From Octopus vulgaris (taxonomy: Eukaryota), in contig OX597824.1 in the NCBI GenBank assembly GCA_951406725.2, positions 54,870,001-54,934,000 of the forward strand: a stretch of 64,000 nucleotides of DNA, read 5' to 3'. The notes beneath the pieces are model-generated. The model did no database searches and was not told the origin of the DNA. It was given only the letters and a program-made list of their open reading frames with translations. Positions 11,325-55,620 of the stretch are shown here, piece by piece (positions within the stretch are counted from its first letter, which is position 1; every line of letters begins with the position of its first letter). Position numbers and translations under genes: made by a program.

Positions 11325-14300
11325 TTCCTCCTATCACCCTCAATGGTTACGAGAAATTTATTTCTCCTAGCCGAGGGGGAGGTGCAGGCGTGGCAGTCCT
11401 TATCAGGAAGAACTTAGACTTACAGGTAAGTACTGTCTTTCTAGACCCAGAAGGTAGGCTGGTTGTCCTAGATGTGACTCACGTGAGTAAGCAGTCCTTC
11501 AGGTTGGTAGCTGTCTATGCTCCTAATGGTTGTGGGCAGACCGGTTTTTATCGGGACCTGGAGCACTTTTTAGTGACGTCTAAAACGGTAGTCTTGGTAG
11601 GGGACTTCAACACTATTCTCGATGCGCGGGTTGATAGTGTAGGCTCGAACGATAGAAAAGGGAATCCTTGCCTCAAGGCTCTACTAGCGAGCTTTAATCT
11701 AGTAGACCGTTTTTGACTGGAGGAGCCGAACGTTCCACAGTGGACGTGGAGTAACAACGACGGCTCACGCAGATCGTATATAGATACGGTATTTGTTAAG
11801 GAACGAGATAGGCATAGCGTTAGCTGTCCACAATTTTCTGTTGTGCCTTACACGGATCACAAACTTGTGACGTGTGAGGTACAGATAGATAAATGCCATA
11901 GACAGGGTCCCGGGTACTGGAAAATGAACAAGTCTATTTTGACTTGTGAAGCTTTCCGTACCCGGATAAAGGAATTAGTCCAGAGGGCATTAAGTGGCAC
12001 CATCATTAATAATAGATGGTGGCTCGCCCTCAAAAGAGCTATCCGCTTGGATTCCATTAGATTTAGCAAGCAGCTAAGTTAAGATAGGACTAGAATAGAG
12101 GGCGAATTAGTTAAGAACTTAGACGAGGCAATGGAATCTGGCTGTGCATCTGGAGTGTTAGCAGCGAGAACGGTCTTGTACCGTCACCTCAAAGCTAAGC
12201 ATGAGGGGTGTAGAGTCAGAGCTAAATTACGTGCAGGGAAACGAGAAGGTATTAATGTTGCCGGATGGGCCCGTCGTGAGGAGAGTCAGAAGGGCAAAAA
12301 GTCTTGTATTAAGTCTTTAACTGATGAGCAGGGTCGCAAGATCTATGGACAGGAGATGCAGAAGGTCCTTCACCAGCGTTTCGCCCGGTTGTTTGGGGAT
12401 GGCGGTCCGCTCGAGCGAGGGGAGGCCTTAAAGGTGGGCCGCGGCTCTCGACACGTGAGGCGGAATGCTGTGAAGGATCGATCTCTCCCGCGGAGGTAAG
12501 AGAGGTTATGGCCGGTTGCGCCGGGGTTAGAATTATGAGTTCTATTGTTGTATGCCGGACTTGTTCGGAGATATACTGGCGGGAGTCTATGCGAACTGGC
12601 AACAGAATGAGAGGATTCCCAATTCTGTGAGCCGGGGAGTTGTGACGCTGGTCCAGAAAGACCCGAACAAGGGGGATAGTATTAGTAATTATAGGCCCAT
12701 AACTCTACTTAATGTAGAGTTTAAGATTTTGGCCAACTTATCGGGAAGGCACAGACATGTGCAATCCCAGGCAGGTCGATCCAGGATAATCTTCACCTTC
12801 TCCGCTACACTATAGACAGGGTCGGGAAATTAGCCGGCAAAGGAGGGGCATTGGTCCATTTAGACCAAAGTAAAGAGTTCGATAGGGTAGACCATCGGTA
12901 CTTGGCGGCTGGGCTGGGCCCTGGCTTTTGCGTGTGAATCTCAGCTATGTACAGCGGCATCAAATCCATAGTCCAGATAAACGGTTACCTAACGGAGCCG
13001 TTTTCGATCAAGCGTTCAGTTCGTCAAGGGTGTCCCTTGTCCCCGCTCCTGTATGTTTTGGCTCTTGAGCCATTGCTGCGGAAGTTGGAGAAGTTGGGAG
13101 GCAACCCTAATGAAATCGGATGCGGTAAGTCTGTTTCTGCCTATGCGGATGACGTCACCCTCATCGTGTCCAACGAAGCACAGCTAACTCGTGTAGAAGG
13201 TGCTCTCCGAAGATACGAAGCTGTGGCAGGGGCAAAAGTTAACAAGGACAAGTCCACCGGTTTGCGCCTCGGCACCTGGAGGAACAAGCCGATATTGTCC
13301 AGTGTTGTTGGACACTGGACAGATGGTCCTGTTAAATTGCTCGGAGTTTGGTTTGGTCCAGACTCCCAGACGGAGAAGAATTGGAGCGAGGTAGCGAACA
13401 AGATAGAAGCTATAATACGGAAGTGGTCCGGAAAGCATCTTTCCTTGAAAGGGAGGGCGGAGGTGGTACAGATGTTTATAGCCTCTGTCATCACCTACCG
13501 CCTGACAGTCGTGCCCTGCCCCGATTCGTGGTTAAGCAAGTTAGAACGACTCCTTTTCCGCTTTTTGTGGAGGGGAGGAAAGCCCCTTGTGAGACGCTCC
13601 GTGTGTTGCCAGGAACCGCTAAAGGGAGGGCTGGGGGTGCCTTGGCTAATGATGCGCAGGCATGCGTTGAGGCTGAGACATCTCTGGTGTCACCTGGAGG
13701 GTGATAAGGTGTGGAGTCCGCTGGCAGAGGAATTCTTCCCGCGACCGGCCTCTAATGAAACCCGGTTTCATTAAAAGACGTAATCTGACTTTATGGCAGA
13801 AGGAGCGCCGACAGGCACTCTGGCTGATCCACAAGGTGGGCAAGGCCGGCAGCGAGAATACCACCTCGGTGTTCTATAGAGGGCTGGTTGAGGCAAAAAA
13901 TGACGACGTCCTAGGAGGGGCTCTGGGGTTCGATGAGAATCAACTCTCCAACCTGTTTAAGAAGACTTTCAGGCCGGGGTATTTGGACAATTACTAAAAA
14001 TCCCTGACCTGGCAGTGCTATAGGAATGCATTACCTGTTCGCGATAAGTTATCCAGGCACGGAATGTCAGTGCCACCGACGTGTCCAAGATGTGGGTTGG
14101 ACGATGAAACCGTTCAACACGCTTTTGTACAATGTTGGGAGCTGTCAAGCTTGATAAGTTACGTTGAACACGTGTTGTCGCATCTGGGACGAGTACAGCT
14201 GTCAGCTGGATCTATGATAAAGATGATACCGCCAACTGGACTCTCAAAGGAAGGTAGGGCTTGTTTTTACTGTACGGTGGCAGTTCTGAAAGAGTGTGAG

Positions 14301-19843: not shown

Positions 19844-22800
19844 TGTTACACATTCATATTCATATCTATGTGTATACGTGCATAGAATACATCCCCACTC
19901 TTGGCACTATTTTGTTAGTGAATAGTAAAAACTGTGTGTAAAGTATATAATGTATTACTACGCTGGAATGTTGAGAAGTTCGTGTAACATGAATAGTAAA
20001 TAAACACGTTAAACAATAACAATGGCTTTCATTTGGTTGTCTATCCCATTAAAACCCAAACTACACATAACATGGTGGCAGCGGTAAATAATTAATCGGA
20101 AACTGTGCCTTTACAACAAAACAGAAACACAACGAACCAGAAATTTAACAAACAAAACATCGCTTCGTCTTCGGACAACACGACGATCCAAGATGGCGAC
20201 CCCCGTCGCCGTACAGATGAATCTACATCCGATTATGAATTGGGATTCCGTTGATGTCGTAGAAGCATTTAAAAAATTCAAACAGAAAACTCAACTAGCT
20301 TTCAAAAGTTTCCTGAAAGACACAACTGACGATGAGAAGGTAAGCTATATCCTTTTATGGACGGGCAATAAAGGTATAGACCTATTCAATAGCTGGGATA
20401 TGTCAGAATCGGACTGCAATAACCCAGACACACTTTTAGAGAAATTTGAAAGGCACCTAGAGCCCAGATCGAACCATAGAATTCACAGATTCGAATTCCA
20501 GGGCTTGAAACAAGACCCACAAGAAACGATTGACAATTTTCTGTCCAGACTAAAGAATGTTGCCGAAAAATGCAAATTCAAAGATAAGGACGAAAGAATC
20601 GTTGATCAATTAATATAGGGGTGTGCTCATAAGGAAGTTCAGAAATCCCTCATAGGTAAGGACGCTCTCCAGTTGATAGAAGCAGTAGACACTGCAAGAG
20701 CATTCGAAGCTACTACCAAACAAATGGCCTCACTTAGCTTACAAACAAGCTCACTAGGCAGCAGTGTAGATATTGTATCTAGGCACAGGACACATACCCG
20801 CAAACAAAGAACATGCCAGTACTGTGATATGGAGCATGAATTCAATAACCGAAAGAAATGTCCTGCATTCGGTACACACTACAAAGCATGTGGAAAACTT
20901 AACCACTGGGAAAAAAATGTGTAGGTTAACAAAATCCCAGAAAAACAAGCCCCAATTTTCAAAGAGGAGCGGAAATAGAAGAAGAGATATACATGCCCAA
21001 TAACAAGAACAAAACACCTCAGAGGAGGAATTCTTGGCAGTCGGCACAATAAATGTGCATGAGATGGGAAATGACGACCAGAGAAAAAATGAGGCATACA
21101 CAACAATAAGAATACAGAAGAAGTCTGGCAGGAAACGAATAAACATAGACTTAAGGCTAAAGATTGACACTGGAGCCCAGAGTGATATCTTACCTGTCAA
21201 CCTCAACAAAAAGATGTTCCTAGAACACATAACACAAGAGGTACGGAGGTACCAGGATTCCACAACTGGGCAAAACAACTATCACAGGGACACACAAAGG
21301 AAAAACAATCAAGTGTTCTTTTTATGTCACAAGAACAGAAGGCCCAGCAATTCTTGGACTCAATACCTGCAAAAAGCTTAATATTGTGTCAATCAATGCT
21401 GAAGTGAAAGCAGCTCCAAGCAGGATTGACAGTGATATGCCTATCAAAGATCGACCACAAATCACAAACAAAGAAGAACTGATAAGCATATACCCTGAAT
21501 GCTTTGACGATACAGTCGGGTGCTTTGTGAAACGTCGATATCATATAACAGTCGACTCCAATATCAAACCAATTGTTCACCCACCTCGCCGCGTCCCACT
21601 AGAACTAAAAGAGAAGCTGAAGACAGAGTTGGACAGAATGGAAAGAAAAGAAATAATCACCAAAGTGACACAACCAACAGACTGGGTAAATTCAATTGTA
21701 ATCAAGGAAAAACCCAATGGTACCCTACGGATATGCTTCGACTCAAGGGACCTGAACAAAGCATTAAAAAGAGAGCACCATCGAATTCCAACCCTTGAAG
21801 AAATCACACCATCATTAGCTGGATCCAAATTATTCAGCAAACTGGATGCCAGCAATGGGTACTGGAATATAAATATAGACAAAGAGTCATCCATGCTCAC
21901 TACCTTCAACACACCATTTGGTAGATATCGATTCAACCGACTCCCATTTGGATTGAAGGTGAGCCAAGATGTTTTCCAGCGCCAAATAGATGAGGCCTAT
22001 CAAAGCTGGAAGGGAGCAATTGGAATAGCAGATGACATCCAAGTGCATGGCAAGGATGAAACCACACATGACTTCAATTTACATGAAGCTATGGAGAAAA
22101 CCCGACAAGCAGGCATCAAACTCAATGCAGACAAGTGTGTGATAAAAGAAAAGGAGTGCAAATTCTTTGGAGTTATATACTCTGCAGAGGGAGTTAAACC
22201 AGACCCCGCTAAAGTGGAAGCCATCTGAGACATTAAAGAACCCAAAGACAAGAAGGAACTCAGGAGCTTCATGGGACTCATCCACTACATGGGAGCCTTC
22301 ATACCCAAGCTGGCCGATCACACTGCAAATCTCCGAGAACTAAACAAAGATGACGTAGAGTTTGATTGGTGTGCTTCACACACACAGGATTTCAAAGCAA
22401 TCAAAAAGCTCATCAGTAAGGAGACAACTCTGCAATATTATGACAGACGTAAGCCAGTAACACTCCAAGTCGATGCTTCTGTGAGAGGAGTTGGCGCAGC
22501 ACTGATACAAGAAGGTAAACCCATTGCATATGCCTCGAAAGCTCTCTCACCCACAGAGACAAGGTACGCGAATATTGAAAGGGAACTCCAGGCAGTAGTA
22601 TATGGATGCGAAAAGTTCCATACATACCTGTATGGCGGACATTTCAATATAGAAACAGACCATCGCCCGCTAGAACAAATACATAGAAAAAACCTGACAA
22701 AAGCACCAGCCAAACTGCAAAGATTACTGTTAAGGCTTCAAACATACGACTATGATATCAGGTACAAGCCAGGAAAAGACCTGATATTGGCGGATGCTCT

Positions 22801-24584
22801 TTCCAGACTATCCTCACATGATAAGCAGGAGATGGAAGGACTAAGCATAAAGGTCCACCACATTGTAAATGTGACAACCACAAAGCTAGCGGAAATCAAA
22901 GAGGAGACCAGCAAAGATGAAGAACTTCAGCTCCTCACTCAGATGGTGATTCAGGGGTGGCCAGAAAAGAGACATCAGGTGCAGCCCCTAATTCGTGAAT
23001 ATTGGGCCATCCATGATGATATATCAGTGGAGAATGGAATCCTGATGGCTGGATCCCGGAATAATTATACCCAAGTCAATGCAAAAAGAGATTCTTGACA
23101 AGATCCACCAAGGGCATCTAGGAATGGAGAAATGCAAGCTCCGAGCCAAGTCAGCAGTATATTGGGTAGGCATGTACAAAGACATAGAAAAGACAGTTTC
23201 TACATGCCACATCTGTCAAAAGTACAGAAACTCACAACAAAAGGAGGAAATGATATCTAGTGACATCCCAAGAAGGCCATGGCAAACTATTGGAGTAGAT
23301 CTGTTCACAGAGGGCTAAGAATGATATTTGATAATGGCCTGCTACTACTCCAAATTTCCATTTGTGAGAAAAGTGAAAGACCTGACAGCCAAAACAATCA
23401 CTACAGTGGCTCGAGGACTTCTAGCAGAGCAAGGAATACCAGAGCAGATCATATGTGACAATGGAACCCAGTTCACATCACAAGAATTCAAAAAGCTAGC
23501 CGATGAGTATGGGTTCAATATCACAACCTCATCTCCACACTACCCCAAAAGTCATGGGTTTATAGAAAGACAGGTACAGACAGTGAGGAGAACACTTGTC
23601 AAATGCCGAGAGACTAAGGAAGATCCACACCTGGCACTTCTGTCCCTACGAGCGACACCACTGAGAGCTGACATGAAATCCCCAGCAGAATTGCTGAATG
23701 GCAGTAAGTACAAAACTACCCTACCAACTAAGATCCAACCTCCTATTGACCAGGAAGAGACAAGGGCAAAGTTAGCAGCCACTCAAGAACAATCACAGAG
23801 GTATTACAACAAACACGCACAATATTTACCTGAGATACTTGGAGGACAACATGTGCCTACTCAAGATCCCATAACTAAAACATGGATCCCAGCACAGGTT
23901 GTCAGTAGAGCTGAAACTCCAAGATCATATATAATAGAAACGGAATCTGGTGGGCAGCTGAGACGTAACAGAGCCCACATCCGCCCAACACCAAAGCTGT
24001 CGAGGACAACGTGTACAACACCTGCTGCATCCGTGACAACACCCACAGAATCATCACCCCAACGGGCACAAACCGCCTATCAGCAGCCCAACAACACACT
24101 TCAGACACCGGTGCGAAGCACAAGATCCACCAGATGGAGAAAGAACATTCTGCCACCGGTTCGATACCGTTAAGGGAAAAAAAAGCCAAAATGAAAAGAT
24201 AAGTAACAAATTCAGCTAGACTACAAAGCAGAGGCAGAATAATCTCACGATTTCTGCTGTAGGATTGCCACCTCAGGCTGACAATCCATTAGAGTAAGGG
24301 AGACTACTCATAATTGTCTTCACTGCCAGAAGACCCCTTTATTTTTTTCAAGAAGAAGGGATGTTACACATTCATATCTATGTGTATACGTGCATAGAAT
24401 ACATCCACACTCTAGGCACTATTTTGTTAGTGAATAGTAAAAATTGTGTGTAAAGTATATAATGTATTACTACGCTGGAATGTTGACAAGTCCGTGTAAC
24501 ATGAATAGTAAATAAACACGTTAAACAATAACAATGGCTTTCATTTGGTTGTCTATCCCATTAAAACCCAAACTACACATAACA
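19844..24584 (+). mobile_element. Full-length decayed Ty3/Gypsy LTR retrotransposon (gag-PR-RT-RH-IN)
   Basis: LTRs 19844-20072 and 24362-24584; PBS TGGTGGCAGCGG (tRNA-Leu-like); PPT agaagaaggga; protease IDTGA; RT LPFGL and IADD; RH VDAS and TDHRPL; integrase HHCC and CDNG..F. Many stops and frameshifts. Confidence 0.96.
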
Positions 24585-27125: not shown

Positions 27126-27168
<43 letters not shown>

Positions 27169-27214
27169 AAACAAGTCAAAAATAGAAAATGCTAAAATAA
27201 TTTTATAGTGAACA

Positions 27215-27258
27215 TTTCAGTACCGGTTTCGGTCATTTTGAGACCTTTTCAACTGTAA
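27215..27258 (-). ncRNA. Minimal HHR, U3:A8 covariant (second copy at 31533-31576)
   Basis: UUACAG-UUGAAAA-GGUC(ucaaaau)GACC-GAAA-CCGG-UA-CUGAAA, with palindromic ACCGGU stem III. Confidence 0.8.
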
Positions 27259-27900
27259 CGATTAAATAATTAAATTTAGAAAAATTAGAAGAAAAGTTTT
27301 TTTAAAAGAATATTTCTATAGTAGTGTTCAGATTTAAGTGGCATTCTGCCTTTCTCTGACTCCCTTGTTTGCACTTGTGCGTTGGAGGTCGTTGTGAGTT
27401 CTTGGTAGGGTAGTAGAGGAAGAAGGCTGGTGAGGAAAGGGGGGTGGAAGAATCTGGGAGTGCCCTGATGGTCGTATTTTGAATGGTCAGTGGCGGCTGG
27501 CAGTCTCAGTTCAATTCAGGAGAATATTTATATTGACAGGCTTGTTTATAGAATTAGCGTAGGTGTTATACTAAAAAACATTAGTGACAAAGTTAAGGGG
27601 TAGGGGGTGGAGAAGTAGAAGAAGAAGGAGAAGAAGAAGAAGAAGAAGAAGAAGAAGAAGAAGAAGGAGAAGGAGAAGATGACGATGATGGTGATGGTGG
27701 TGATGATTATGACGACGATGATGATGATAATAATGATGATGAAGAAGAAGAAGAAGGAGTAGAAGGAGAAAAAAACAGAGAAGGGAGAATATGAATGGGT
27801 GTAAGTATAGCTATGAAGGGGCTGATTAGTAATGGATTCTATGGAGTGTAATATTTGTGTGTGTATATATATTTTTCTTTTATTCTAAAGTTGAGGTATA

Positions 27901-30219
27901 TTAATTGTTTATCGTAGACCCGTTAAGAAGTGGCTTGTATTTTGTAATAAAGAGATTTTCTTTACTTATTCGTTGTCTCGAGGTTGTATCGTCCCTAAAT
28001 TGGTAGAGGGGGAAAATTCTGAAGTTTGGTGTTTTTTTGTTGGCGCAAGTATCTATGTGTTGGCTAAAAGCTATTTTTCTGTTTTGGGGAATTTTTATCT
28101 GGGATCTGTGCAGGGCCATTCGTTTACGCAAACCATTTTTTGTTTGGCCTATGTACTGCTCTTGACACCCGGAGCAGGTTAGTGAGTATATTAGGTTCTC
28201 CGAAGCACATGTGAAGTTGCTTTTCACTGTAAACCGTTGTCCCTGTTTGAAGGAGAACTCTGATCCCTCAATTAGATAGTCGCATATCCCGCAATTGGGT
28301 CTTCCACATTTTTTTACTGTCGGCTTCTGTGTTGAAGAGTGAATTCGGGCTTGTGTAAGGAGACTTTTCATGGATCTAGGCTGTCTTTTGCTTTTTATGA
28401 TCGTGTGTGTTTGGAGGATTGTGTTCATTCTGTGGTCTTTTTTTAGGAGGGGTATGTTGTGGAGGATGGTGTCGACGGCTTCGTTATTGAGAGGGTTGTG
28501 TGTGGAGATGTATGGTAAGGCTTTTGGTTGTAAGTTTTTCTTTGATTTGGGATGTCTCAGTTCCTTGATGTTAAGTTGAAGGGCACGTTGAATGCACTTG
28601 TCAATAAGTGAAGGTGCATAGTTCCTGGTGATAAGGGTATCTTTTAGTTCTTGTAGTCGTGTGTCTCTGGTGTTTGCGTTAGAGACTATAGTGCATATCC
28701 TTTTTGCTAGATTGAAGGGGATATTCATCCTGGTGTGTCTGGGGTGGCATGAATTGAATGGAAGATATTGCTTAGAGTCTGTAGGCTTATAGTATATGTC
28801 TGTTTCTATTATATTATTAGCTTTCTTAATGAGGATATCGAGGAAGGGGAGTTGTTGTTGGCTATATTCCATCGTGAATTGGATATTTACGTCCAGTCCG
28901 TTTAAAATTTTCTGGAATTCTATGAGTTTTTCTATATTTTTATGCCAAAGGATGAAACAGTCATCTAGATATCTCTTCCAGTTGTTTTCTATGTAGATGG
29001 AGAAAGGGCTGCCATATCTTTCTAGAACCTTACGATACAGACTGATCTCTAGGTATCCTATGACTAGGTTGGCAAAGGAGGGGGCCATTCGTGTACCCAT
29101 CGCCGTCCCCGATTTTTGTCGGTAGAAGTTGTCATTGAAGGCGAAGAAGTTATTTTCCAGGATGAATTTAACCCCTTCTATCACAAATTCTTTTTTGATG
29201 CGGTGTGGTAGTTCGTTGGCGTGATTCTCTAGCCAGAATTGGATTGCCTCTAGTCCTAGGTTGTGGGGGATATTGGAGTAGAGGTTGACTACATCGAAGG
29301 ATACCAGTATGGTGTTTTTGTTTATAGTATTCGGCATATCTAAGTCGTCCCTTATATAGCTTTTGACATGTTTGAGGAGTGGTTTTAACAGGGTGTCTAA
29401 AAAGTTACTGAGGCGGTGGGTTTCGCATGCGGGACCTGCTATTATGGGTCTCAATTTGAGGTCATTAGGATTAGGGACTTTAATTATTTTGTCTGTAGCT
29501 ATCTTGCATGCGCTGCTTATTTTTTCACTTTTGTGGATCTTAGGTATACCGTAGAATTGGCTAGTTTTACTTGTGAAATTGGTCATATAATCATATTCTT
29601 TGTCGGTGAGCCCTGCTTTGTATGGGTTTAATATGGATTTTAGTTCCCTCATTATTTTTTGTTGACTGTAGTTTTGTGCCTTTTCATAGTATGTTGTGTC
29701 TTCCAGCATAGAAAGTACCAAAGTTATGTAAAATGTCGTATCCATTAAGACAACAGCACTCCCTTTATCGGCCTCTTTGATTGTTATTGTTTTATCTTGT
29801 TTTAATTTGTTCAACTCAGCCCATTCTTTTTTGCTGAAGTTTGGTTTGTGTTTTTGTTTGTGCATATGTTGATATGGGTAATTTGATATGTGGTCACAGA
29901 AATCATCAAGTGTTTTATTCTTACCTTTCGAGGGGGTGTAGTTACTCCTATTTCTGGCTAACGATTCGTCCTCGTTGTATTTATCGTATAGCTCCTCAGT
30001 AAGTCTTAATTTTCTGCAGAATTCTGCGATGTCTTCTTTCATTTCATTGTAGTTGGGGTGTTGTGGGGTGGGTGTAAACTTGAGTCCTTTGGAAAGTATG
30101 TTTATTTGGTTTGCTGTTAGTTCCTTGTGAGTTAGATTAATAAATTTTATTACTTTTGGTTCCTCCTGCTTGTTTGGTGCTATCTTGTGTCTCTGTGTTT
30201 GCGTATTGGGTCTAAAAAA
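27901..30219 (-). CDS. PLE reverse transcriptase + GIY-YIG endonuclease; the reading frame is open well upstream of the first ATG at 30042
   Basis: LSKGLKFTPTP (upstream of the ATG), ADKG, PKIHK, RPII, SFDVVNLY, GTAMG, RYLDD, FLDI, CGRPNCGIC, LIYSLTCSGCQEQYIGQT and PLLN, with no internal stops. Confidence 0.93.
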   Translation of the reverse strand, partial: FFRPNTQTQRHKIAPNKQEEPKVIKFINLTHKELTANQINILSKGLKFTPTPQHPNYNEMKEDIAEFCRKLRLTEELYDKYNEDESLARNRSNYTPSKGKNKTLDDFCDHISNYPYQHMHKQKHKPNFSKKEWAELNKLKQDKTITIKEADKGSAVVLMDTTFYITLVLSMLEDTTYYEKAQNYSQQKIMRELKSILNPYKAGLTDKEYDYMTNFTSKTSQFYGIPKIHKSEKISSACKIATDKIIKVPNPNDLKLRPIIAGPACETHRLSNFLDTLLKPLLKHVKSYIRDDLDMPNTINKNTILVSFDVVNLYSNIPHNLGLEAIQFWLENHANELPHRIKKEFVIEGVKFILENNFFAFNDNFYRQKSGTAMGTRMAPSFANLVIGYLEISLYRKVLERYGSPFSIYIENNWKRYLDDCFILWHKNIEKLIEFQKILNGLDVNIQFTMEYSQQQLPFLDILIKKANNIIETDIYYKPTDSKQYLPFNSCHPRHTRMNIPFNLAKRICTIVSNANTRDTRLQELKDTLITRNYAPSLIDKCIQRALQLNIKELRHPKSKKNLQPKALPYISTHNPLNNEAVDTILHNIPLLKKDHRMNTILQTHTIIKSKRQPRSMKSLLTQARIHSSTQKPTVKKCGRPNCGICDYLIEGSEFSFKQGQRFTVKSNFTCASENLIYSLTCSGCQEQYIGQTKNGLRKRMALHRSQIKIPQNRKIAFSQHIDTCANKKTPNFRIFPLYQFRDDTTSRQRISKENLFITKYKPLLNGSTINN

Positions 30220-31466
30220 TGAATGCGGTGGTTGGGACGGTAGCTAGTATATAGTTGTTCTTTGTTGATTAGGGGTCTCCTGTTGTGATTTATGGTGTGT
30301 GTTCTTGGAGCAGTATTGAGGAGAGCATCCCGATATCCCATATTCGGGTGTGGTGTTCTAGGAGGCCTTCGTTGGTAATCATTGCAAGTGGTGTGGGTTT
30401 GTTGTGCATGGTTGTTTAACCGGTTAATGGGACGAAGATTTCGTTGGTAACTCCTTTGGGTGGGGATGAGGTTGCAGTGTCTATGCTGTGGGTGTTGATT
30501 TATCCTTTCTCTGCTTGAAGTGGGGGTATTCCTGATATTGTATCGCTGGCTGCTTACAGAGTTAGGGTTAGGTCCTGTATTCTTTTTTTGATAGTAGTGA
30601 AGGTTCCGATTTTTAGACAGGTGTGTATCGGTGTTTGGGTGTTGTTTTGGTTTTCTTATTTTCTGGAAAGGGTTGTTGGAGGCGTGCTCTGTTTGAAAGA
30701 CGGCTTCATAGTCTGAGAACCAAGTGGCGCTTTTCTCCCAGCGTTGGAGAGATTTTAGTTCTTCTTTTTCACAGTCCTCTTTCCATAGTTTGGAGAACTT
30801 CTCTTGATCTGGGCCTTGGGTCATTTTGCGAATTTCTTCGTTGATATCTTCATCGGTGGATTTTATTTTATCCTCATTCGTTTGGGCCCTCAATTTCAGA
30901 AGTTCTATTTCCATTTTCATTTTTTCCAGTGCCATTCTCTCCCTGAGGTGTCTTTGTGTTTCAGGTTCTTCTGTAATAGCTTTGAACTGGAATTTACGTG
31001 GGAGGATTAACGGGGTCCGGTTGAGCCATTTTTCGTATATATCCGCTTTGTTGTTGTTTTGGATCATCTTCCAAAAGGCGAACTTTCTATCTCTGAGTGA
31101 TTTGTTCCATTGTGGTATTATGTGGTGTTTCATTTGGTATGTTGTTAGAGTATTGATCCCATATATTGACGCGTTTGGAGGTCCTTGGTTAGCGTTGTTA
31201 GAGAAAAATGTTCTAATTGTTTCGCATAAGTTTCCAAGGTTTTCGACAATTTCGGAGGTTGTATTTTTCGTATCTGTTTCTTCATTGTTCTCTCGATTGG
31301 GTTGAAGTGTCGAGTCGAATTTGTTCAAAAAAGTTGACAAATTTGTGTTGATTTTCTTGAGTTCTTTCAGTATTTCTTCGTTTATGGAGGTGATTGTGTC
31401 TGTTTTTGTCGGCATTTTCTGTATCTCGTGTGGGTTAATGATATGTATAAGGGTGAAAAGGAACAC
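30180..31466 (-). CDS. PLE upstream ORF1 (428 aa; charged helical/coiled-coil middle, basic N/R/Q/H-rich tail); likely ATG start at MPTKTD
   Basis: Uninterrupted ORF between the 5' pLTR and RT. It overlaps the RT frame by ~40 nt after the slippery site. Function is inferred only. Confidence 0.8.
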   Translation of the reverse strand: MFLFTLIHIINPHEIQKMPTKTDTITSINEEILKELKKINTNLSTFLNKFDSTLQPNRENNEETDTKNTTSEIVENLGNLCETIRTFFSNNANQGPPNASIYGINTLTTYQMKHHIIPQWNKSLRDRKFAFWKMIQNNNKADIYEKWLNRTPLILPRKFQFKAITEEPETQRHLRERMALEKMKMEIELLKLRAQTNEDKIKSTDEDINEEIRKMTQGPDQEKFSKLWKEDCEKEELKSLQRWEKSATWFSDYEAVFQTEHASNNPFQKIRKPKQHPNTDTHLSKNRNLHYYQKKNTGPNPNSVSSQRYNIRNTPTSSRERINQHPQHRHCNLIPTQRSYQRNLRPINRLNNHAQQTHTTCNDYQRRPPRTPHPNMGYRDALLNTAPRTHTINHNRRPLINKEQLYTSYRPNHRIHFLDPIRKHRDTR

Positions 31467-32250
31467 ACGAGTTGATATATATGAAAAAACAAGTCAAAAA
31501 TAGAAAATGCTAAAATAATTTTATAGTGAACATTTCAGTACCGGTTTCGGTCATTTTGAGACCTTTTCAACTGTAACGATTAAATAATTAAATTTAGAAA
31601 AATTAGAAGAAAAGTTTTTTTAAAAGAATATTTCTATAGTAGTGTTCAGATTTAAGTGGCATTCTGCCTTTCTCTGACTCCCTTGTTTGCACTTGTGCGT
31701 TGGAGGTCGTTGTGAGTTCTTGGTAGGGTAGTAGAGGAAGAAGGCTGGTGAGGAAAGGGGGTGGAAGAATCTGGGAGTGCCCTGATGGTCGTATTTTGAA
31801 TGGTCAGTGGCGGCTGGCAGTCTCAGTTCAATTCAGGAGAATATTTATATTGACAGGCTTGTTTATAGAATTAGCGTAGGTGTTATACTAAAAAACATTA
31901 GTGACAAAGTTAAGGGGTAGGGGGTGGAGAAGTAGAAGAAGAAGAGAAGAAGAAGAAGAAGAAGAAGAAGAAGAAGAAGAAGGAGAAGGAGAAGGAGAAG
32001 ATGACGATGATGGTGATGGTGGTGATGATTATGACGACGATGATGATGATAATAATGATGATGATGAAGAAGAAGAAGAAGAAGAAGGAGGAGGAAGGAG
32101 GAGAAGGAGAAGATGGTGGTGATGATGGTGGTGATGATGATGACGACGATATTTATTTATTTATTTATTTATATTTATTTATTTATTTATATATATTTAT
32201 TTATTTATTTATATATATTTATTTATATATATATATAAATATATAAATAA

Positions 32251-32290
<40 letters not shown>

Positions 32291-32292
<2 letters not shown>

Positions 32293-32699
32293 CAGGAGTG
32301 GCTGTGTGGTAAGTAGCTTGTTTACCAACCACATGGTTCCGGGTTCATTCCCACTGTGTGGCACCTTGGGCAAGTGTCTTCTACTATAGCCTCGGGCCGA
32401 CCAAAGCCTTGTGAGTGGATTTGGTAGACGGAAACTGAAAGAAGCCCGTCGTATATATGTATATATATGCGTGTGTGTGTTTGTGTGTTTGTCCCCCTAG
32501 CATTGCTTGACAACTGATGCTGGTGTGTTTATGTCCCCGTTACTTAGCGGTTCGGCAAAAGAGACCGATAGAATAAGTACTGGGCTTACAAAAGAATAAG
32601 TCCCGGTGTCGAGTTGCTCGATTAAAGGCGGTGCTCCAGCATGGCCGCAGTCAAATGACTGAAACAAGTAAAAGAGTAAAAGAGTAAAGAGTAAAGAGT
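32291..32699 (+). mobile_element. tRNA-derived SINE, same family as 4465-4842
   Basis: Same head and body; (AAAGAGT)n tail. Confidence 0.9.
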
Positions 32700-35344: not shown

Positions 35345-38300
35345 AATACATGAAAGTACATGAAGTTTGTTAAAAAAAGCGGATCATGTATATGTTCCTT
35401 GTTTTTCCTGGTGGAGCATATACAAAAAGGTTTCTTTTGGTTCCTACTCTTGAGCAGCCAACATACAGTTGCCCATGCGAGAAGTAGGGCTCTTCCAAGA
35501 GAAGACCAGCTACAGAGAGGGTTTGACCCTCAGATTTGTTAATGGACATGGCAAAGCTGCAGTCTTCTGAATGTAAATGGAATTTCTGCTCCTGATGGAG
35601 TAAGAGGAATTCTTGGAATAAAGACGTCATCACCTTTTCCACACCCGGAAAGAATGATCGCCTCGATAACGTGTGACATCATTTTCTTTATCAACAGTCG
35701 TGTTCCATTGCAAAGTCTTGGTGGTTCCAGATTGCGGAGTAGCATTACAGGAGTTCCAACTTTAAGTGCTAATATGTGAGCAGGTAGTCCAGGAGGCTCC
35801 AGTGAATTGAGAAATTCAGGAGGATAGTTCACAACATCATTTATATCTGGAATTGTATCAACAGACTTGTAAGTGTGTATAGTGCCGGGAAGAGAATGCA
35901 TTAGCTGTTGATTAATTTTGTTAACAGCGACGTTATTTGGAGCTAATATTGCTCTTTCACACAGCCAATTGTGATTTTGGTAGTTTTGTGTGAAGTTGAG
36001 GTCATCTACAGAATTAACAACAAAGGAAAATGACCACACTTCCATTTGTCCAGCAGCACCGAGACGCATCTTGCCTTTACCAAGTGTCAAAATGTCCTGT
36101 GCAAACTTTGTGGACATTTTGTCACCGTGTAGCTGAGCTCTCATGTTAGTGGTGAGACTGAGGATTGTAACATGATGCCACAGTCTCGGGTGTCTTTCAT
36201 GGTTCTATCTAATGCTTCCAAAGCTCCCATGTGAGCCATAGTGCACTCGTCCCAGACAATTAGATGACACATTTTAAGTACTTGTCCCTGATCTGAGCTT
36301 TTGATGATGTTGCATGAAGGCATTTCGGATGCTGCTAAATTGAGAGGGAGCTTAAAAGTTGAGTGTGCTGTCCTGCCACCGGGTAACAAAGTAGCTGCAA
36401 TGCCAGAGGAGGCTACAGCTACCGCAATGTCCTGATGCTGCCTAATTTCAGCAAAGAGAAGCTTTGTAATAAATGTTTTTCCTGTCCTTCCAGGAACATC
36501 GAGGAAGAAGATTCGTCCCTTGTGTTGGCGTACATTGTTAAGAATAGTTCTGTAGGCCTGCAGCTGGTCCGGAAGTAATTTAGGCTCATTTTCAACAATG
36601 TACTTTGAAAGCGCTTGAGTGTCGTAGGTTGTTTCACGAATGACAGCAGTGGAAAGGCTATTTGACCCTGACCTGAATGCTTGTGGCAGGCCATACGTCG
36701 ACAATTTATTTCCACCCAGTTTAGTAATTCTGTCTTCAATGTCAATGAGTGTTTTGTTATAGATTTCATTGCTGATACCCTCCATGTCCGGATAGAGCAG
36801 TTGAGGTTGGCGCTGAAAGTCTTCAGACAGGTTGTCTCTATATTTGAGCCATAAAGTGGCCGGATCACACAGTTCGCATGCCTGTAGTAATAATGCAAAT
36901 AGTGCCCTGAGACTTTTAAGTGATTGTGATAAAGCAGCCTCTCCTAAAGTTGTGTAACGGTAATGAGTCGCTGATTGCACTTTTTGGGTGCAATTGGTGC
37001 AATCACGATTTCCGTTGCTTTACTTTCCAGACTCTACCAGTCAGAAACAACAAGACGCAAACGTAAAAAATATATATACTCTTTATTGTCTTATCCAACA
37101 CGAAATAAGTGGTGTATCGGGTATCCCTTGGTTCTGGGCGTGCAAGGCTGAACTTTAACGCTGTAAGATTTTACAATGTTCAACTGCAAACAGAACTGGT
37201 CAAAATGGCGTCAGGAGAGAGCGAAGATAATACGCGTCTGCTTCAATGAAAGGCTTTCTGCTGTCTGCTGTCTGCCGTGTCTCTGGACGCTTAGTTGGTC
37301 AACGTTTTTACGCTCCCTTGCCTCTTTGTTATGGTTCGCTTTCCCCTGCCATTCAACTAATGCCACGACAGCAAATCCCTTCTTCCGGTCTTCGCGCATG
37401 CGTGAGAGGGCTCTTCCCCTCTGCCTTGGTGAAGGCACCAACCCCGCACGCGCGCGCACAGTTGTATAGGATCACTACAGTTGCATCTCATTGTGCACCA
37501 TCTTCTAACAGACCTTGTCGATAGCAGGCTTCTCTGTATGTTGTGCACAAATGTCCATGAACGGTTTTTAGGGCCTGGAAAGACGTTGGCCGGCTGACTT
37601 CATGCAGTAGTAGACGAAGGTAGAATCACTCTTGTTGAGTGGGATGCACTGTGTATACTCACCCAAGGCAAGTGTGAAACTTAATGCCAGGGTATCCATG
37701 AACATTTTGACCTGCTTTCCGTGGGGCCAATTTTTTCCATTCCAAGTGTTACACGATGGTATCTGTGGATACAGCAAGGTTTGAGCGAATGGATCCACTT
37801 GACAAAGCTTGAAGAATGCAGTGAGTGTGCTATCCCTTGGTTCATCTGCCAACAGAGAAGCATTAGCATCGGTGAAGTATGGGTAGATATATTATGCATG
37901 TATATATGTGTATATATATGTGTGTACATATTATATGTACATCTATATATATACATCTACACATAAAATACAAAATACAAAGTTATATCTCCATATCGCT
38001 AGTGATAACAATACTCAAAATATATAACAGACTGGAATTGTAGGCCCGTCTCTTGCAATTTCGATCAATTGGATCTTGTCCTCCCTCTTGTATAGAAGTG
38101 TACGACTGCAGCGAAATTCAATTTTGGACTTTCTTCTATCGAAGGCATTTTAACAAAAATGCTTTCGTAACGACGGTGAAAATATTGTCAATTTTCCCAA
38201 ACAGGGACACAATTCAATTTTTAAGCAATAACCAAAGCCCCTTCTCCGAAAGGGGGAGGGTTACGATTTACAATTATTTAACAAATGCAACACAACAACG

Positions 38301-38430: not shown

Positions 38431-41400
38431 ATACGAATTTGTCTGCTTCTTTGTCTGCTCTTTCCTTTTCATGGGAGAGTTGCAGACATTTTTCAATTTC
38501 CAACAGTTTTATTTTCAGGCGGGACTTTTCACTGCTTTCAATTTGTTTGTTTAGGCGATTTGAAATTTTTGTACGCCGTCTCATTAAAATTTTCCTCTCT
38601 CTGGGGATTTTGTTCTTGTGTACAGTGGCCTTTCTCTCTGGGACACATTTGTAGCATATGGCTTGCATTACAGACATGAATTGTTGAAGTTTCACGTCGA
38701 TGTCTGGCGAGGAGAGACATTCAGGCCAGTTTTGTTTGAGGATCTCTTTCTCAATTTGTTTCCAGTTTGCCTTATGGAAGTTCAAGCTGGAAAGATTCTG
38801 AGGGTTTCTTGTAGGCTGCATGTCCATGCTTTCCTTTGGCCCGTACATGGTCAGCTCTACCATGTTGTGATCCGAGAGTAGTGTCGGTGTCACTTTCACA
38901 TTATGGATGAGATCCATATTATTTGTGAAGCAGAGATCCAGTGTGTTACCTGCTCTGGTTGGTTGGAGTATTACTTGCTCCATGTACAGGGTGTTGATGA
39001 GGTTCAGGAGGGACCTCGCCTGTCCTCGTTCACATCTTGTCATTCCTGGGAGAGAAAGGCCCTCGGGCCATCTGACATTGGGTAGATTGAAGTCTTCCAT
39101 AAGAAGTACATTTATGTGTTGTTCTAATGTGATTAGAACTTCTTCTATTTCTATAAGGCAGTCTTCAAACTTGCCTAAATGGCTTGGGGCATCTGGAGGG
39201 CGATATGTAGCACACACAACTACATCAAGTTGCCTTATATGTACAATTAGTGTGTCACACACCGAGTTTGAGTATGACAAAAGGACCTGGGGTGTGAGGT
39301 CCTCACGGGTGTACATAGCAACTCCTCCATGACTCCTTTCTTTTCTGTCGGTCCGTAGTACAACATACTGTGGTATGTGTAATTCCGCATCTGCTATGTC
39401 CGGTTTCAGGTGCGTTTCCGTAAGTGCTATGCATAAAGCTTGATTGCATGCAACAAAGTCTCTCAAGAACGGGATTTTTGTCCTGTTACTGAGTGTATGC
39501 AGTCCTCTGATGTTCAGTAGGAGCATCGAGGTGAGGTGTATGTTGTTGCCGGCGGTGTCCACCTTGGGTCTGTTTGCTGTGGTGGTGTTGTATATTGTGG
39601 GTAGTCCCATCTGCGAGCTTGGGTTTGAAGAAGCCAGGTTAGCTGCTGTACAATCTTTTGTGCCATGCACAAAAAAGATTCTTGCTCAGCAGCTGCCCTT
39701 TCAACAACATCATGTTGGCGGTTTGTGGCACGCACCACATCTGCGTACCTCCGTTTTGGGGCAGGTGGTGCCTGGTCCATCCCTTTTCCTTTTGTTGATG
39801 GTTTGTTTCTTATCTGTTTCGTGTCTCTGCGGCAGGGTTCCCGATGTTCGAAGCGGCAGCCTGCACCTTCCTCTCCATGCCAGCAGGTACCTCTCAGGTA
39901 GAACCTACACACCCGTGTGCGCTGTTTGTTTCCATCCTTTGTGGTTCCACTTTTATTCCTGGCTGTTTCACCCTTTGGTCCTGCTTGAGCTTTTCTTTTA
40001 GTCCTTCTTTTAGTTCTTCCTCCCTCTATTTCTTCCTTGGGTTCTTCATCTCCATGGCCTTTGTTGCTGGTAGGAGCACTTGCACTTGGGTTCACTTCCC
40101 GGGCAGGTTTCTCACTCAAAACCTCTTCCCGGGTGTCCACCAGGTGGGGGTGACTTCTTTCATCACCACCCGCGTCTCCATCCTTGCCATCTTTGCCCTG
40201 CTCGTTCTCAAAGATGGCATCAAGCGTGCCAATGTGCGATCGTACAAGCGCATAGGAGCGTATGAACTCCTGCTTCTTTCGCTCTATCTGAGCTATTGTC
40301 CTTTTATAACTGCCGCTCTTCAGCGCAGCCGTAATTACATTGTTAGGGTTATCGCATTTCCAGGCTCGTACGAACAACGCCAATTCGTCACGTCTCCAGG
40401 CTCTGGACATGTTGGATACTCTATCTATTTATCTATCTAATTATGTTCAAAATTCAATAGTGTGACAGAGGGCAGAGAAGAAGTAGAGAAAGAAAGTGAC
40501 TGTGTATTTAGAGAGATTGAGAGCTGAGAAAAGATAAGAAGATATCTTATTTATTTATCTACCTATTTATATCTGTCTAATTATATTTATTTATCTATCT
40601 AATTATATCTATCTATTATATCTAATTTATCTATCTAATTATATTTATTTATCTACCTAATTATACTTAAAATTTAATAGTGTGATGGAGGGTGGAGAAG
40701 AAATAGAGAAAGAAAGTGAGAAGGAAAGTGACTGTGTATTTAGAGAGATTGAGAGCTGTGCGACTATATATTTAGAGAAGTTGAGAAGGTGAGAGAGGAA
40801 AGATTGTGACAGAGAGAAGTGAAGAAGTGAAGAGACAAGTAAAGATTGAACGGCTGAAAGAAGAGAGATGGTGTGATAGAGAGAAGTAAAGAGACAGAGG
40901 GAGAAAGAGAAGAAAGAGAGGGGGTTACGAAGCTGCAATAAAAATGAAGGATTAAGAAAATGAAAGATTAAGAAAATGAAAGATTATTAAAGAGAGGAAA
41001 GAGAGGGGGTTACGAAACTGAGATAAAAATGAAAGATTAAGAAAAATGAGAGATTATTAACAGGAAAGCTGAAAATATACGCATATATATACACATATAC
41101 ACGTACACATACATATATACATATACACGTGCACATACATACACATATATACACAAGCGGAGAGAGAGAAATAGGAAATAATAGATTCTAAAATAAAGAC
41201 GGAAAGATTATTAAAGTTCGCGTCTATGCATATATACGTATACATATATACGTATACATATATACATACACGTGCACACACACACACACACATATATACA
41301 CAAACGGAGAGAGAGAGAAGGTGGAAGAAAAGAAAGTGAGGAAAATATATTAAAATATATTAAAGTGTGGAAAAGAAGGGGTTATTTAATCCTAAAGCTA

Positions 41401-47965: not shown

Positions 47966-48329
47966 TATATCATAAAATATAAACTTAACTCTATAATAAG
48001 ATAAATATATATATATATTATATATCATAAAATATAAACTTAACTCTATTATAAGATAAATATATATGTATGATATATCATAAAATAAAAACTTAACCCT
48101 ATTATAAGATAAATATATATATATTATATATCATAAAGTATAAACTTAACTCTATTACAAGTTAAATGTATATATATTATATATCATAAAATATAAACTT
48201 AACTCTATTACAAGATAAATGTATATATATTATATATCATAAAAAATAAACAACTCTATTATAACATAGATATATATATATTATATATCATAAAATATAA
48301 GATATATATAAGATATATATATTATATAT

Positions 48330-49985
48330 ATCTAGCTACTGGCCCCGATGGATTCCCGGCAATCCTCCTAAAAGCATGTAAGAGAGTCCTAGCAAGACCA
48401 CTGCAGTTCCTCTTTCAGAGCTTCCTTGCAGCTGGCAAACTTCCAGGAAAACTGAAGGAAGGTAAAATATGCCCCATTCATAAAGGAGGTAGCAGAGCGG
48501 AAGCCAAGAACTATAGACCTATCTCTCTGACCTCACACATCAGCAAGGTCATGGAACGAATAGTCAGAAGGAAGCTGATCACCTTCCTTGAAGAGAATGA
48601 CTTGCTGCCCGACACCCAACATGGTTTCCGACCAGGGAGAAGCTGTTTAACTCAGCTCCTACAACACTATGACTGGGTGCTGAAACGGCTGCTCAACCAC
48701 TCAAATGTGGAAGTCATATATCTCGACTTTGCAAAGGCCTTTGATAAAGTCGATCATGGAATGATATGTCACAAACTGCGTGATCTCAACATAGTTGGAA
48801 AACTGGGAGAATGGCTTCATGACTTTCTGAAGGATAGAAGTCAGGTGGTAGTAGCCAATGGGGCCACCTCCATTAACACACAAATAGTGAGCGGTGTTCC
48901 GCAGGGCACTGTTCTGGGACCACTACTGTTCATAATGGCCCTCTCAGACATGCCCTCAGCCACGCAGAGAGCCACGATCACAAGTTATGCAGATGATACA
49001 AAAGTCTCACAGGCAATACAGAACCCTGAGGACACTAAACACCTGCAATGTGAGCTGGACGAAATATACAAGTGGGCTGAAAAGAATAGCATGCAGTTCA
49101 ATGCTGGAAAGTTTCAAGCTTTATACTATCAGCATGCAAAACTGAATGCAATACCCAATGAATACACTGGACCCGGAGGGATTGCAATCCCAGAGGCACA
49201 ATCAGTGCGTGACCTTGGTATTCACATGAGTGATGACGCGACCTTTCATGTACATGTTGCTAAACTGACAATGAAATGTAGACGGCTGGCTGGATGGATT
49301 CTTAGAACCTTTAGAACAAGAGAACAAGAAACCATGATGGTCCTCTGGAAGACACTTGTCCTAAGCCACTTTGACTATTGCTCTCAGCTATGGTCACCAT
49401 CCAGTGTCAAGTTGATCACAGAACTTGAGGCGATCCAACGAAGCTACACAAAGAAGATAGCCTCTATGCAGAATGTAAGCTACTGGGAAAGACTCAAGAG
49501 ATTAAAATTATATTCCCTGGAGCGTAGGCGGGAAAGATATGCCATAATATACATCTGGAAGATCCTGGAGGGAAGTGTCCTGAACTTTGGCATCGAGAGT
49601 TACGCAAATGCCAGAACTGGGCGCCATTGCGTGGTGCCTAGGATTCCAAACCTGCCATCAAGATGTAGGACAAGATTCTGTGATAGCCTGGGCTTCCGAG
49701 GCCCACAGCTCTTCAATATCCTCCCGAAGAACCTGAGAGACCTGCATGGGGTGGATACAGATGTCTTTAAAATGAAGCTGGATCTCTTCCTGTCAGGTGT
49801 CCCAGATGAACCAACTTCACGGCAGGAGGGGCAGATGAGGGCAGCTGCATCGAACTCTCTCATGCACCAAATAGCAGTTGCTAGAAAGCCTCCATGAAGT
49901 GAAACCAAGTAGCAACACCAAATGGCGGTGCCCCAGCATGGCCACAGCTCATAAGCTGAAACTAGAATCAATCAATCAATCAATC
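48330..49985 (+). mobile_element. CR1-group LINE 3' half with uninterrupted RT ORF
   Basis: GPDG, YRPISL, QHGFRPGRSC, YLDFAKAFDKV, SGVPQGTVLGP and YADD; stop at 49897; (ATCA)n tail. Confidence 0.94.
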
Positions 49986-54900: not shown

Positions 54901-55620
54901 TTAGGGCTAAGCGGCTGAGTTCTCATTTGAATTCGGTGTTTAAATATTATTTCCTTAATTTCCAAGTTTACCTTCCTCAGGGTACTCCAATTGGTTTTTC
55001 TATAATTTTTCTTGATCTCTTTACCGAGTAAATCTAGGTACTGCTTAATGGGTAGCTTGTATGTGTTCCTGGTCTTGTCGGACTGGACCAGGACTCCGTC
55101 CGTTCTATTAATGTCCTTGGTAATTTTATCTAGGTAACTGAGGTGGGCATTTCTCCTGGGTGACTTCCTGAACTTAATCTTTCTAACTATGTCCCACAAG
55201 TCGTCCTCAAACTTCTTCAGTCTTGGGTTAGGTGGCGGCGTATCCAATGTTTTAAAAGCCGGCCGTATTCGGACGATGCTGTTGTCCGGTTCGATTTTAG
55301 ATCTTCGTTCTCGTGGAAGAAAACGAGCCATCTTATCCGGTTTATGAATGCGTTGGTTTTACAAACCAACTCCTTAAGGAAGGCGTCCTTCGGTGGTATG
55401 TAGAATGAAATGAAATAAAACGATTTCTGTTCAATCTTCGTTCAGCTCCATTTCTTCAATTCACCAATAATATTTTAATTTCAATTATCCGCACCAACGC
55501 ACGGTTGCAACACCATATGGTTGTACCTCCAACCGTGCTGTCTTCTGCTGTGATTTTTGCTACCAAGGTATCGGTTAAACTTTTGATTAATCTGCTACAA
55601 GATTATTCATCTTCCTATTT
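51985..55620 (-). mobile_element. Penelope-like element (Naiad-like RT + C-terminal GIY-YIG) with 3' HHR and inverted 5' end; one nonsense codon and one frameshift
   Basis: FINRIRW, QSDKT, VKDHKPNF, RLICPA, FDIASFYPSI, FDVPMGS, LYRDD, VYQC..YVGAS, TGLSKLIWRLK, CNLC and CPH. TGA at 54714-54716 and a frameshift near 55260. Confidence 0.9.
52046..52140 (-). ncRNA. Type I hammerhead ribozyme in the PLE 3' region
   Basis: AUUUCUUC-CUGAAGA-GAAAG..CUUUC-GAAA-CACGUG-UA-GAAUGAAAU, with palindromic ACACGUGU stem III. Confidence 0.85.

Follow-up and report, generated by a model that had tools for sequence, protein, structure and literature searches.

We analyzed a 64,000-nt stretch of the Octopus vulgaris genome (assembly GCA_951406725.2, contig OX597824.1, positions 54,870,001 to 54,934,000; the whole stretch is called the window below), which carries on its minus strand a Neptune-like, endonuclease-bearing (EN+) Penelope-like element (PLE). 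In this element a separate open reading frame, ORF1, overlaps the frame encoding the reverse transcriptase (RT) together with a GIY-YIG endonuclease (EN). Judging from the sequences, the enzyme is probably made by -1 ribosomal frameshifting at a slippery heptamer, T_TTT_TTA, as a 1171-aa ORF1-RT-EN fusion. Comparison of related families has confirmed that the two-frame layout with the slippery heptamer is a conserved design, being neither a mutation nor a sequencing error.

Organization of the ORF1/RT junction

ORF1 (30180..31415, minus strand) encodes 411 aa from the ATG at 31415, in a frame that is open from 31493, and ends at a TAG (30180..30182, minus strand). The heptamer (30213..30219, minus strand) stands in the ORF1 phase, where it encodes F400-L401 and is read CAT TTT TTA GAC (H-F-L-D). 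The -1 frame contains the RT-linker-GIY-YIG ORF (27901..30243, minus strand), which comprises 780 codons, 772 of them counted from the heptamer. It is closed by a TAG (30244..30246, minus strand) at the ninth codon upstream of the heptamer, with eight open codons between. The ORF1 stop lies 10 codons past TTA and overlaps an ATA codon of the RT frame (ATG in families C and D, see below). The first Met of the RT frame in the window copy is at 30042, 59 codons past the heptamer; the GLKF motif, at codon 44, precedes it.

The preliminary description of this DNA, made from the letters of the window, had placed TTTTTTA at 30213-30219 of the plus strand in the X_XXY_YYZ phase of ORF1, with the -1 frame shut by a TAG about nine codons upstream and no ATG before 30042, and had expected a fusion of about 1170 aa. 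The reading frames bear out all of its statements about the sequence, and the computed product of a -1 slip at the heptamer is 1171 aa long. Its proposal that the two frames are joined by -1 frameshifting is supported by the observations below, the slip itself being deduced from sequence.

Conservation of the heptamer in related families

Eight families were compared, each by one representative. Six of them (A-F) are from the O. vulgaris genome, A being the family of the window copy and the other five having been obtained by ORF1 searches of the genome. The remaining two are loci from a metagenome scan (L051 and L052); related loci were these two in metagenome contigs, and none in prokaryote genomes or viral contigs. 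The N-terminal parts of RT in the eight representatives are 27-68% identical. In the comparison of copies and related families that the preliminary description had proposed, all six genome families and both metagenome loci retain T_TTT_TTA in phase with ORF1 and have RT in the -1 frame. Among all fetched loci the phased heptamer is found in 35/37 (family A), 4/4 (B), 9/10 (C), 6/6 (E) and 12/12 (F), and in 13/17 of the family D loci, a set enriched for odd frames.

This retention exceeds chance, since the sense strand contains just 15-21% T across families, no TTTTTTA occurs within up to 1.2 kb upstream in any of the eight (four have one downstream), and codon usage would spell the F-L pair as T_TTT_TTA with a probability of 0-4% per family. 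Moreover, the -1 frame is open from the heptamer to position +29 in all eight families (approximately 0.01 at the upstream stop rate). The metagenome loci have features of their own, those of L052 being the most informative: in L052 a -1-frame stop directly precedes the heptamer, the base following it is T and the first Met comes 174 codons on, and L051 has a premature stop in ORF1 upstream.

The G that follows TTA at seven junctions creates a TAG in the third frame, at which a -2 or +1 slip would end at once. This TAG is an alternative reason for the retention of G after the heptamer.

ORF1 and RT protein homologues

The protein search with ORF1 yielded 536 cluster representatives (E up to 0.001), and the best 150 are all at most 609 aa long. 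From these searches 152 ORF1 proteins were taken; the 93 of at least 290 aa were analyzed and the 59 shorter ones omitted. FL or FF occurs within the last 45 residues in 77 of the 93 long homologues, compared to 18 of 186 control windows (FL in 73 proteins, FF in four). The residue preceding this pair is never Lys, Glu, Gln, Met or Trp (0/77; local background 19.4%). As codons of these amino acids cannot end in T, their absence points to a constraint at the nucleotide level, namely T before TTT. The homologues are proteins without DNA, and their codon spelling and link to RT are inferred.

The longest of the best 120 among 702 RT homologues is 803 aa (the range searched extended to 1311), and no natural ORF1-RT fusion is found among these 120. 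The search for ORF1 among longer proteins found no fusion either, which is weak evidence. The named RT homologues come from mollusc-symbiont assemblies and are read as host DNA.

The AlphaFold model of ORF1 contains long helices at residues 9-243, 155 residues having a predicted local distance difference test (pLDDT) over 90, and the tail is disordered and rich in Arg, Asn and Gln. Pfam has no family for the window ORF1, and among 20 homologues there is one match above the cut-off (DUF4292, 1/20); the Atlas has no usable match. The fold search with Foldseek gave no match at E 0.001, and the best VIA-align matches (Z up to 8.4) are generic helical bundles and uninformative. Under the frameshifting reading, the ORF1 product would be abundant, a helical protein whose disordered tail is basic, and would probably serve as an RNA-binding scaffold.

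Downstream region and the distance to the ORF1 stop

Canonical -1 signals have a stem-loop or pseudoknot 5-9 nt downstream of the slippery site, and in six of the eight families, including that of the window, no such structure is seen. The folding z-score downstream of the heptamer is between -0.73 and +1.80 in seven families and -2.40 in L051. For the window copy it is +0.67, +0.96 and +0.54, in agreement with the preliminary description, which had noticed no obvious hairpin. The search, which covered simple stems and not long-range or triple-strand folds, found a stem better than in shuffled sequences in two families, F (3/300) and L051 (9/300). Candidate long-range stems start 5 nt (L064, 3 of 300 shuffles as good) and 9 nt (L051, 9 of 300) past the heptamer, and some families may use structure.

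If the codons after TTA are counted, the ORF1 stop falls on codon 11 in families A, B and F, on codon 12 in D, on codon 16 in L051 and on codon 21 in C, E and L052. Among the 77 homologous proteins it is the 11th codon, leaving a gap of 10 codons, in 23 and is never nearer, the other 54 having it 12-44 codons away. On a quick tree the 10-codon class is clustered (six changes, 0/500 shuffles as low), and thus the spacing is largely an inherited trait of a deep group rather than the outcome of 23 independent events. A requirement for the C-terminal peptide, or an overlap of start and stop, could also fix the spacing at 10 codons. A period of 10 codons, with stops at codons 11, 21 and 31, was considered and rejected, as the codon-21 class contains 6/77 proteins and 3/8 loci, mostly mutual relatives. 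In seven of the eight families (junctions L032, L039, L053, L082 and L051) the 11th codon of ORF1 past the heptamer reads TAG, TAA or TGG, and Trp (TGG) in this position may be a former stop.

Under -1 frameshifting, most ribosomes would finish ORF1, yielding the abundant helical protein, and a minority, with tRNA-Phe and tRNA-Leu, would shift one base backwards and continue into the RT-EN enzyme. The output of the enzyme would then be kept at a low fixed ratio to ORF1, as in gag-pol. What might stimulate the slip is more speculative. The spacing of collided eukaryotic ribosomes is about 10 codons. According to the available text of PMC6815119, when a ribosome was stalled at a slow stop in E. 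coli reporters, the one behind it underwent more -1 slipping if the slippery site lay 8-10 codons upstream, and RNA structure was not involved. By analogy, the ORF1 stop 10 codons downstream would make a ribosome pause, and the next one in line would be arrested on the slippery site and prompted to slip. Even given frameshifting, we regard such a roadblock formed by the terminating ribosome as speculative and less likely than not. The more general statement, that a widespread animal EN+ PLE lineage with an undescribed ORF1 family (more than 500 clusters) uses structure-free -1 frameshifting via a stop-ribosome roadblock one ribosome length (10 codons) downstream, is rather unlikely to hold in full.

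Alternative explanations

Several observations weigh against frameshifting or against the proposed stimulation of it. There is no 3' stimulatory structure shared across the eight families, and the 10-codon spacing, apart from being largely inherited, is exact in just three of the eight DNA families. An in-frame ATG is present 29 nt downstream of the heptamer in families C and D, and in 54 of the 120 RT homologues a start is called ahead of the INL motif. In seven of the eight DNA loci the base after the heptamer is G, which also makes the acceptor TTTTTTAG; similarly, a residue with a G-starting codon follows FL in 54/77 proteins (background 19%), which fits an AG acceptor. FL/FF is missing from 16 of the 93 long ORF1 homologues. 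The linkage of ORF1 to RT is established for loci with DNA alone, and the 59 shorter homologues were left out. Finally, ten of 68 copies in family D have five Ts, though these are scattered over sub-lineages.

The starts listed above suggest termination-reinitiation or internal initiation, in which translation would restart 29 nt past the T run, at the codon overlapping the ORF1 stop, and produce a free RT-EN. The RT-frame codon at +29 is ATA in A and B, ATG in C and D, CTG in E and GTG in L051, and the ORF1 stop overlaps it in A, B and F. Of the called starts in the RT homologues, 11 are at projected codons 12-13, and in 19 of the 23 proteins with the stop at codon 11 the last residue is one whose codon can end in A. 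However, the +29 codon is CTA in F and TCC in L052, whose first Met is far inside the RT frame, and ATG is absent from the young, well-copied families A and B. In the other 66/120 RT homologues no start is called before the motif, and those that are called may be GTG or TTG codons. Moreover, reinitiation leaves unexplained the phased TTT TTA in the 54/77 proteins whose stop lies 12-44 codons away. We consider it unlikely that the enzyme is produced in this manner, though reinitiation may be a second route in families C and D. An ATG conserved at +29 was tried as a candidate signal and rejected, as only 2/8 families have it. Accordingly, the earlier claim that an independent ATG start is impossible holds for the window family and does not extend to the whole lineage.

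Splicing would require TTTTTTAG to be a 3' splice site, with an intron removing all or part of ORF1 and RT being translated from the spliced message. The AG closing the T run in seven of the eight DNA loci and the frequent G after FL are what such an acceptor would leave, an ATG stands 28 nt into the would-be exon in families C and D, and introns do occur in PLEs (PMC3846280; PMC8557442, legend to Fig. 1, both in their available parts). Yet L052 reads TTTTTTAT, without an AG acceptor, and 23/77 proteins lack G after TTA, 16 of these 23 being also unable to have AG at the next base. The ORF1 phase would be of no use to an acceptor, but 73 of the proteins have FL and four FF, and no donor-like site is common to the families. 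The search for copies joined at AG produced three that depart at the -3 position, two substitution variants and one private rearrangement, with no recurrent junction, a result of little weight, since PLEs keep introns (PMC3846280, available part). L052, with no AG acceptor and no ATG early in the RT frame, shows that neither splicing nor reinitiation can be the general route. That splicing generates the RT message is, in our estimate, very unlikely, the comparison of families speaking against a general acceptor and leaving a small probability of splicing in the window family.

The possibility that a T was lost from one long ORF in the window copy, or that the assembly contains a homopolymer error there, can be dismissed almost entirely, being refuted by the T counts in copies, by the same two-frame layout in 8/8 families from three assemblies, and by the stand-alone ORF1 proteins (536 clusters, with none longer than 609 aa among the best 150). 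The preliminary description had named a different T count in the family as grounds for abandoning its reading, and the counts do not bear this out. All best 30 loci, picked by similarity, have six Ts. A free-gap pattern gave 131 copies of family A; among the 100 listed, 98 have six Ts and two have seven. The exact search showed that these two are the only seven-T copies in the whole genome, so the fusing length occurs in just 2/131 copies, and both are 5'-truncated and lack most of ORF1. In family D (n=68) the heptamer is present in 56 copies, ten have five Ts, one has three, one has a substitution, and none has a fusing length (four or seven Ts). The frames of L056 and L088 are fused by an extra base nearby, both copies being broken elsewhere.

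The five-T copies of family D are spread over single-nucleotide polymorphism (SNP) groups beside six-T copies (37 junctions examined), with a mean of 1.2 other single-base losses per copy versus 0.42, and they resemble repeated slippage or errors of sequencing. A five-T sub-lineage is ruled out, the ten copies being in different SNP groups. The recurrent 846-aa RT frames of family D were also considered as spliced retrocopies; this was rejected, as in the copies that were read they result from single-base losses in C or T runs and a missing intron is not the cause (L065-L079 were covered in part).

Structure, class and age of the element

The 5' pseudo-long terminal repeat (pseudo-LTR; 31475..32115, minus strand), a feature of EN+ PLEs, is a direct repeat of the 3' end of the element, the pseudo-LTR template (27157..27793, minus strand). 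The two are near-identical over approximately 640 aligned nt and 4317 nt apart, and the 5' copy holds (GAA)n/(GAT)n tracts. A weak hammerhead-like match is found in the 3' repeat (27202..27266, minus strand; HH9, 19.7 bits, E 0.31, gathering score 52), and an equally weak one in the 5' pseudo-LTR (31520..31584, minus strand; HH9, 19.7 bits, E 0.31). The element is flanked by a (TA)n microsatellite, the insertion target, at the 3' junction (27127..27164, no strand) and by an AT-rich microsatellite at the 5' junction (32149..32290, no strand).

RT is followed by a C-terminal GIY-YIG domain (27931..28194, minus strand; E 3.7e-4, 21.2 bits with the Pfam cut-off of 22.6), as is typical for EN+ PLEs. 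RVT_1 was not reported in the Pfam scan of the window copy, and both RVT_1 and GIY-YIG are above the cut-off in a family B copy; the RT homologues also carry RVT_1 and GIY-YIG entries. The linker before the domain contains Cx4CxxC in the window ORF, and CX2-5CxxC is present in 120/120 RT homologues, this motif being a trait of Nematis and Naiad as well. By eye, the spacer between the linker and GIY is long, unlike that of Nematis (rows of Fig. S2 in PMC8557442), and the RT3 and RT4 motifs and the linker spacing resemble the Neptune rows of Figs S1-S2 of the same paper. Two traits of other PLEs are absent: instead of the single ORF of canonical EN+ PLEs there are two overlapping ORFs in 8/8 families, and the element has GIY-YIG, unlike Athena and Coprina, which have no endonuclease. 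The assignment to Neptune-like EN+ PLEs is thus supported at the level of sequence motifs. The Neptune label of the preliminary description agrees with these motifs.

In the genome search (2.8 Gb, 227 contigs) the best 40 of 745 candidate places are approximately 100% identical to the window junction, and hence the family is young or recently amplified. Copies of family A include a head-to-tail triple about 4.4 kb apart and close inverted pairs (G000:C9:10672770-10685123; C9:40509314-40515150; L010). At L046 and L047 a 5'-truncated family A ORF1 is in frame with upstream sequence open in three frames, which results in open frames of 668-681 codons.

Other features of the window

A second, broken RT ORF (52761-55358, minus strand) has the RT3 motif FDIASFYPSI, like the Hydra-clade PLE rows in Fig. 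S1 of PMC8557442, and is possibly Hydra-type. A broken LTR-retrotransposon pol is located at 21233-24173 (plus strand), with an integrase core (rve) at 23325-24170 (E 4.5e-10). ORF fragments at 35542-37019 (minus strand) are helicase-like and resemble those of a Helitron. Fragments at 12938-13771 (plus strand), 38432-40428 (minus strand) and 48203-49894 (plus strand) are presumably similar to RT/endonuclease ORFs of non-LTR retrotransposons. A short repeat at 32293-32680 (plus strand), with an A-box/B-box-like head, is, as we assume, probably a tRNA-derived short interspersed nuclear element (SINE). ARAGORN found no tRNA in the window, including this SINE-like repeat.

Implications and comparison with known systems

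Gene callers and consensus curators, expecting one ORF, would shorten the RT of such elements to an internal Met or regard the junction as faulty. With a gag-pol-like arrangement, an active EN+ lineage would have a candidate scaffold protein for RNA packaging by telomerase-related elements, and would be connected with the two-ORF telomeric PLEs. Diverged, naturally occurring forms of U_UUU_UUA that have no evident RNA stimulator are also available here in number. The stop spacing of 10 codons allows for a specific and cheap test in animals of collision-programmed frameshifting, which we found reported in bacterial reporters only. If the roadblock is real, this would be a natural eukaryotic case of collision-driven frameshifting, with the enzyme output tied to ribosome load and termination speed.

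EN-deficient PLEs and retroviruses already have the constituent parts of the system. What was not found in print is the EN+ context, the breadth of the ORF1 family, and the lack of an RNA stimulator combined with a fixed stop spacing. Literature searches aimed at ribosomal frameshifting or slippery sites in PLEs gave no paper, most subscription papers and Repbase notes being outside their range, and PMC5718144, in its available part, contains nothing of relevance. In its available part, PMC8557442 states in the legend to Fig. 1 that a frameshift accompanied by a pseudoknot can set PLE ORF1 apart, and also mentions a coiled coil, the clades being unnamed. ORF1 with a frameshift is thus in print for some PLEs, and an optional Neptune ORF1 and frameshift may already be drawn there.

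The element shares with the Neptune clade the RT, the CX2-5CxxC linker, the C-terminal GIY-YIG with internal cysteines, the pseudo-LTR and (TA)n insertion. It differs from Neptune and other EN+ PLEs in its 411-aa helical ORF1, which has no Pfam family and overlaps RT in the -1 frame. As far as the available parts of the sources go, canonical EN+ PLEs are described as single-ORF elements (PMC8557442, PMC6431247), some fish and mollusc Neptune elements have esterase ORFs (PMC5408684), a killifish Neptune has a non-overlapping 419-nt ORF1, with frameshifting unmentioned (PMC12602865), and the Neptune clade is paraphyletic (PMC8557442).

As in Athena/Terminon and Coprina, which are EN-deficient PLEs, ORF1 here precedes RT. 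Unlike them, the element has its own GIY-YIG, occupies interstitial microsatellite sites on many contigs and lacks a shared pseudoknot. The frameshift site of Terminons is reportedly mostly a T6A heptamer.

The likeness to gag-pol of human immunodeficiency virus 1 (HIV-1) includes the heptamer U_UUU_UUA, usually followed by G, and the order of frames, the structural ORF being first and the polymerase ORF in the -1 frame. In HIV-1 a stable stem-loop is located a few bases past U_UUU_UUA, whereas six of the eight families here have no stem beyond shuffles; Gag motifs, protease and integrase are also absent.

A nearby stop acts in SARS-CoV-2 through refolding of a pseudoknot (PMC8168617, in its available part). 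The proposed arrangement is closer to the collision-stimulated slip of Smith et al. 2019 (PMC6815119, again in the available part), where a heptamer located 8-10 codons before the 0-frame stop works without structure; that system is an engineered E. coli reporter, while the one suggested here would be a natural eukaryotic case.

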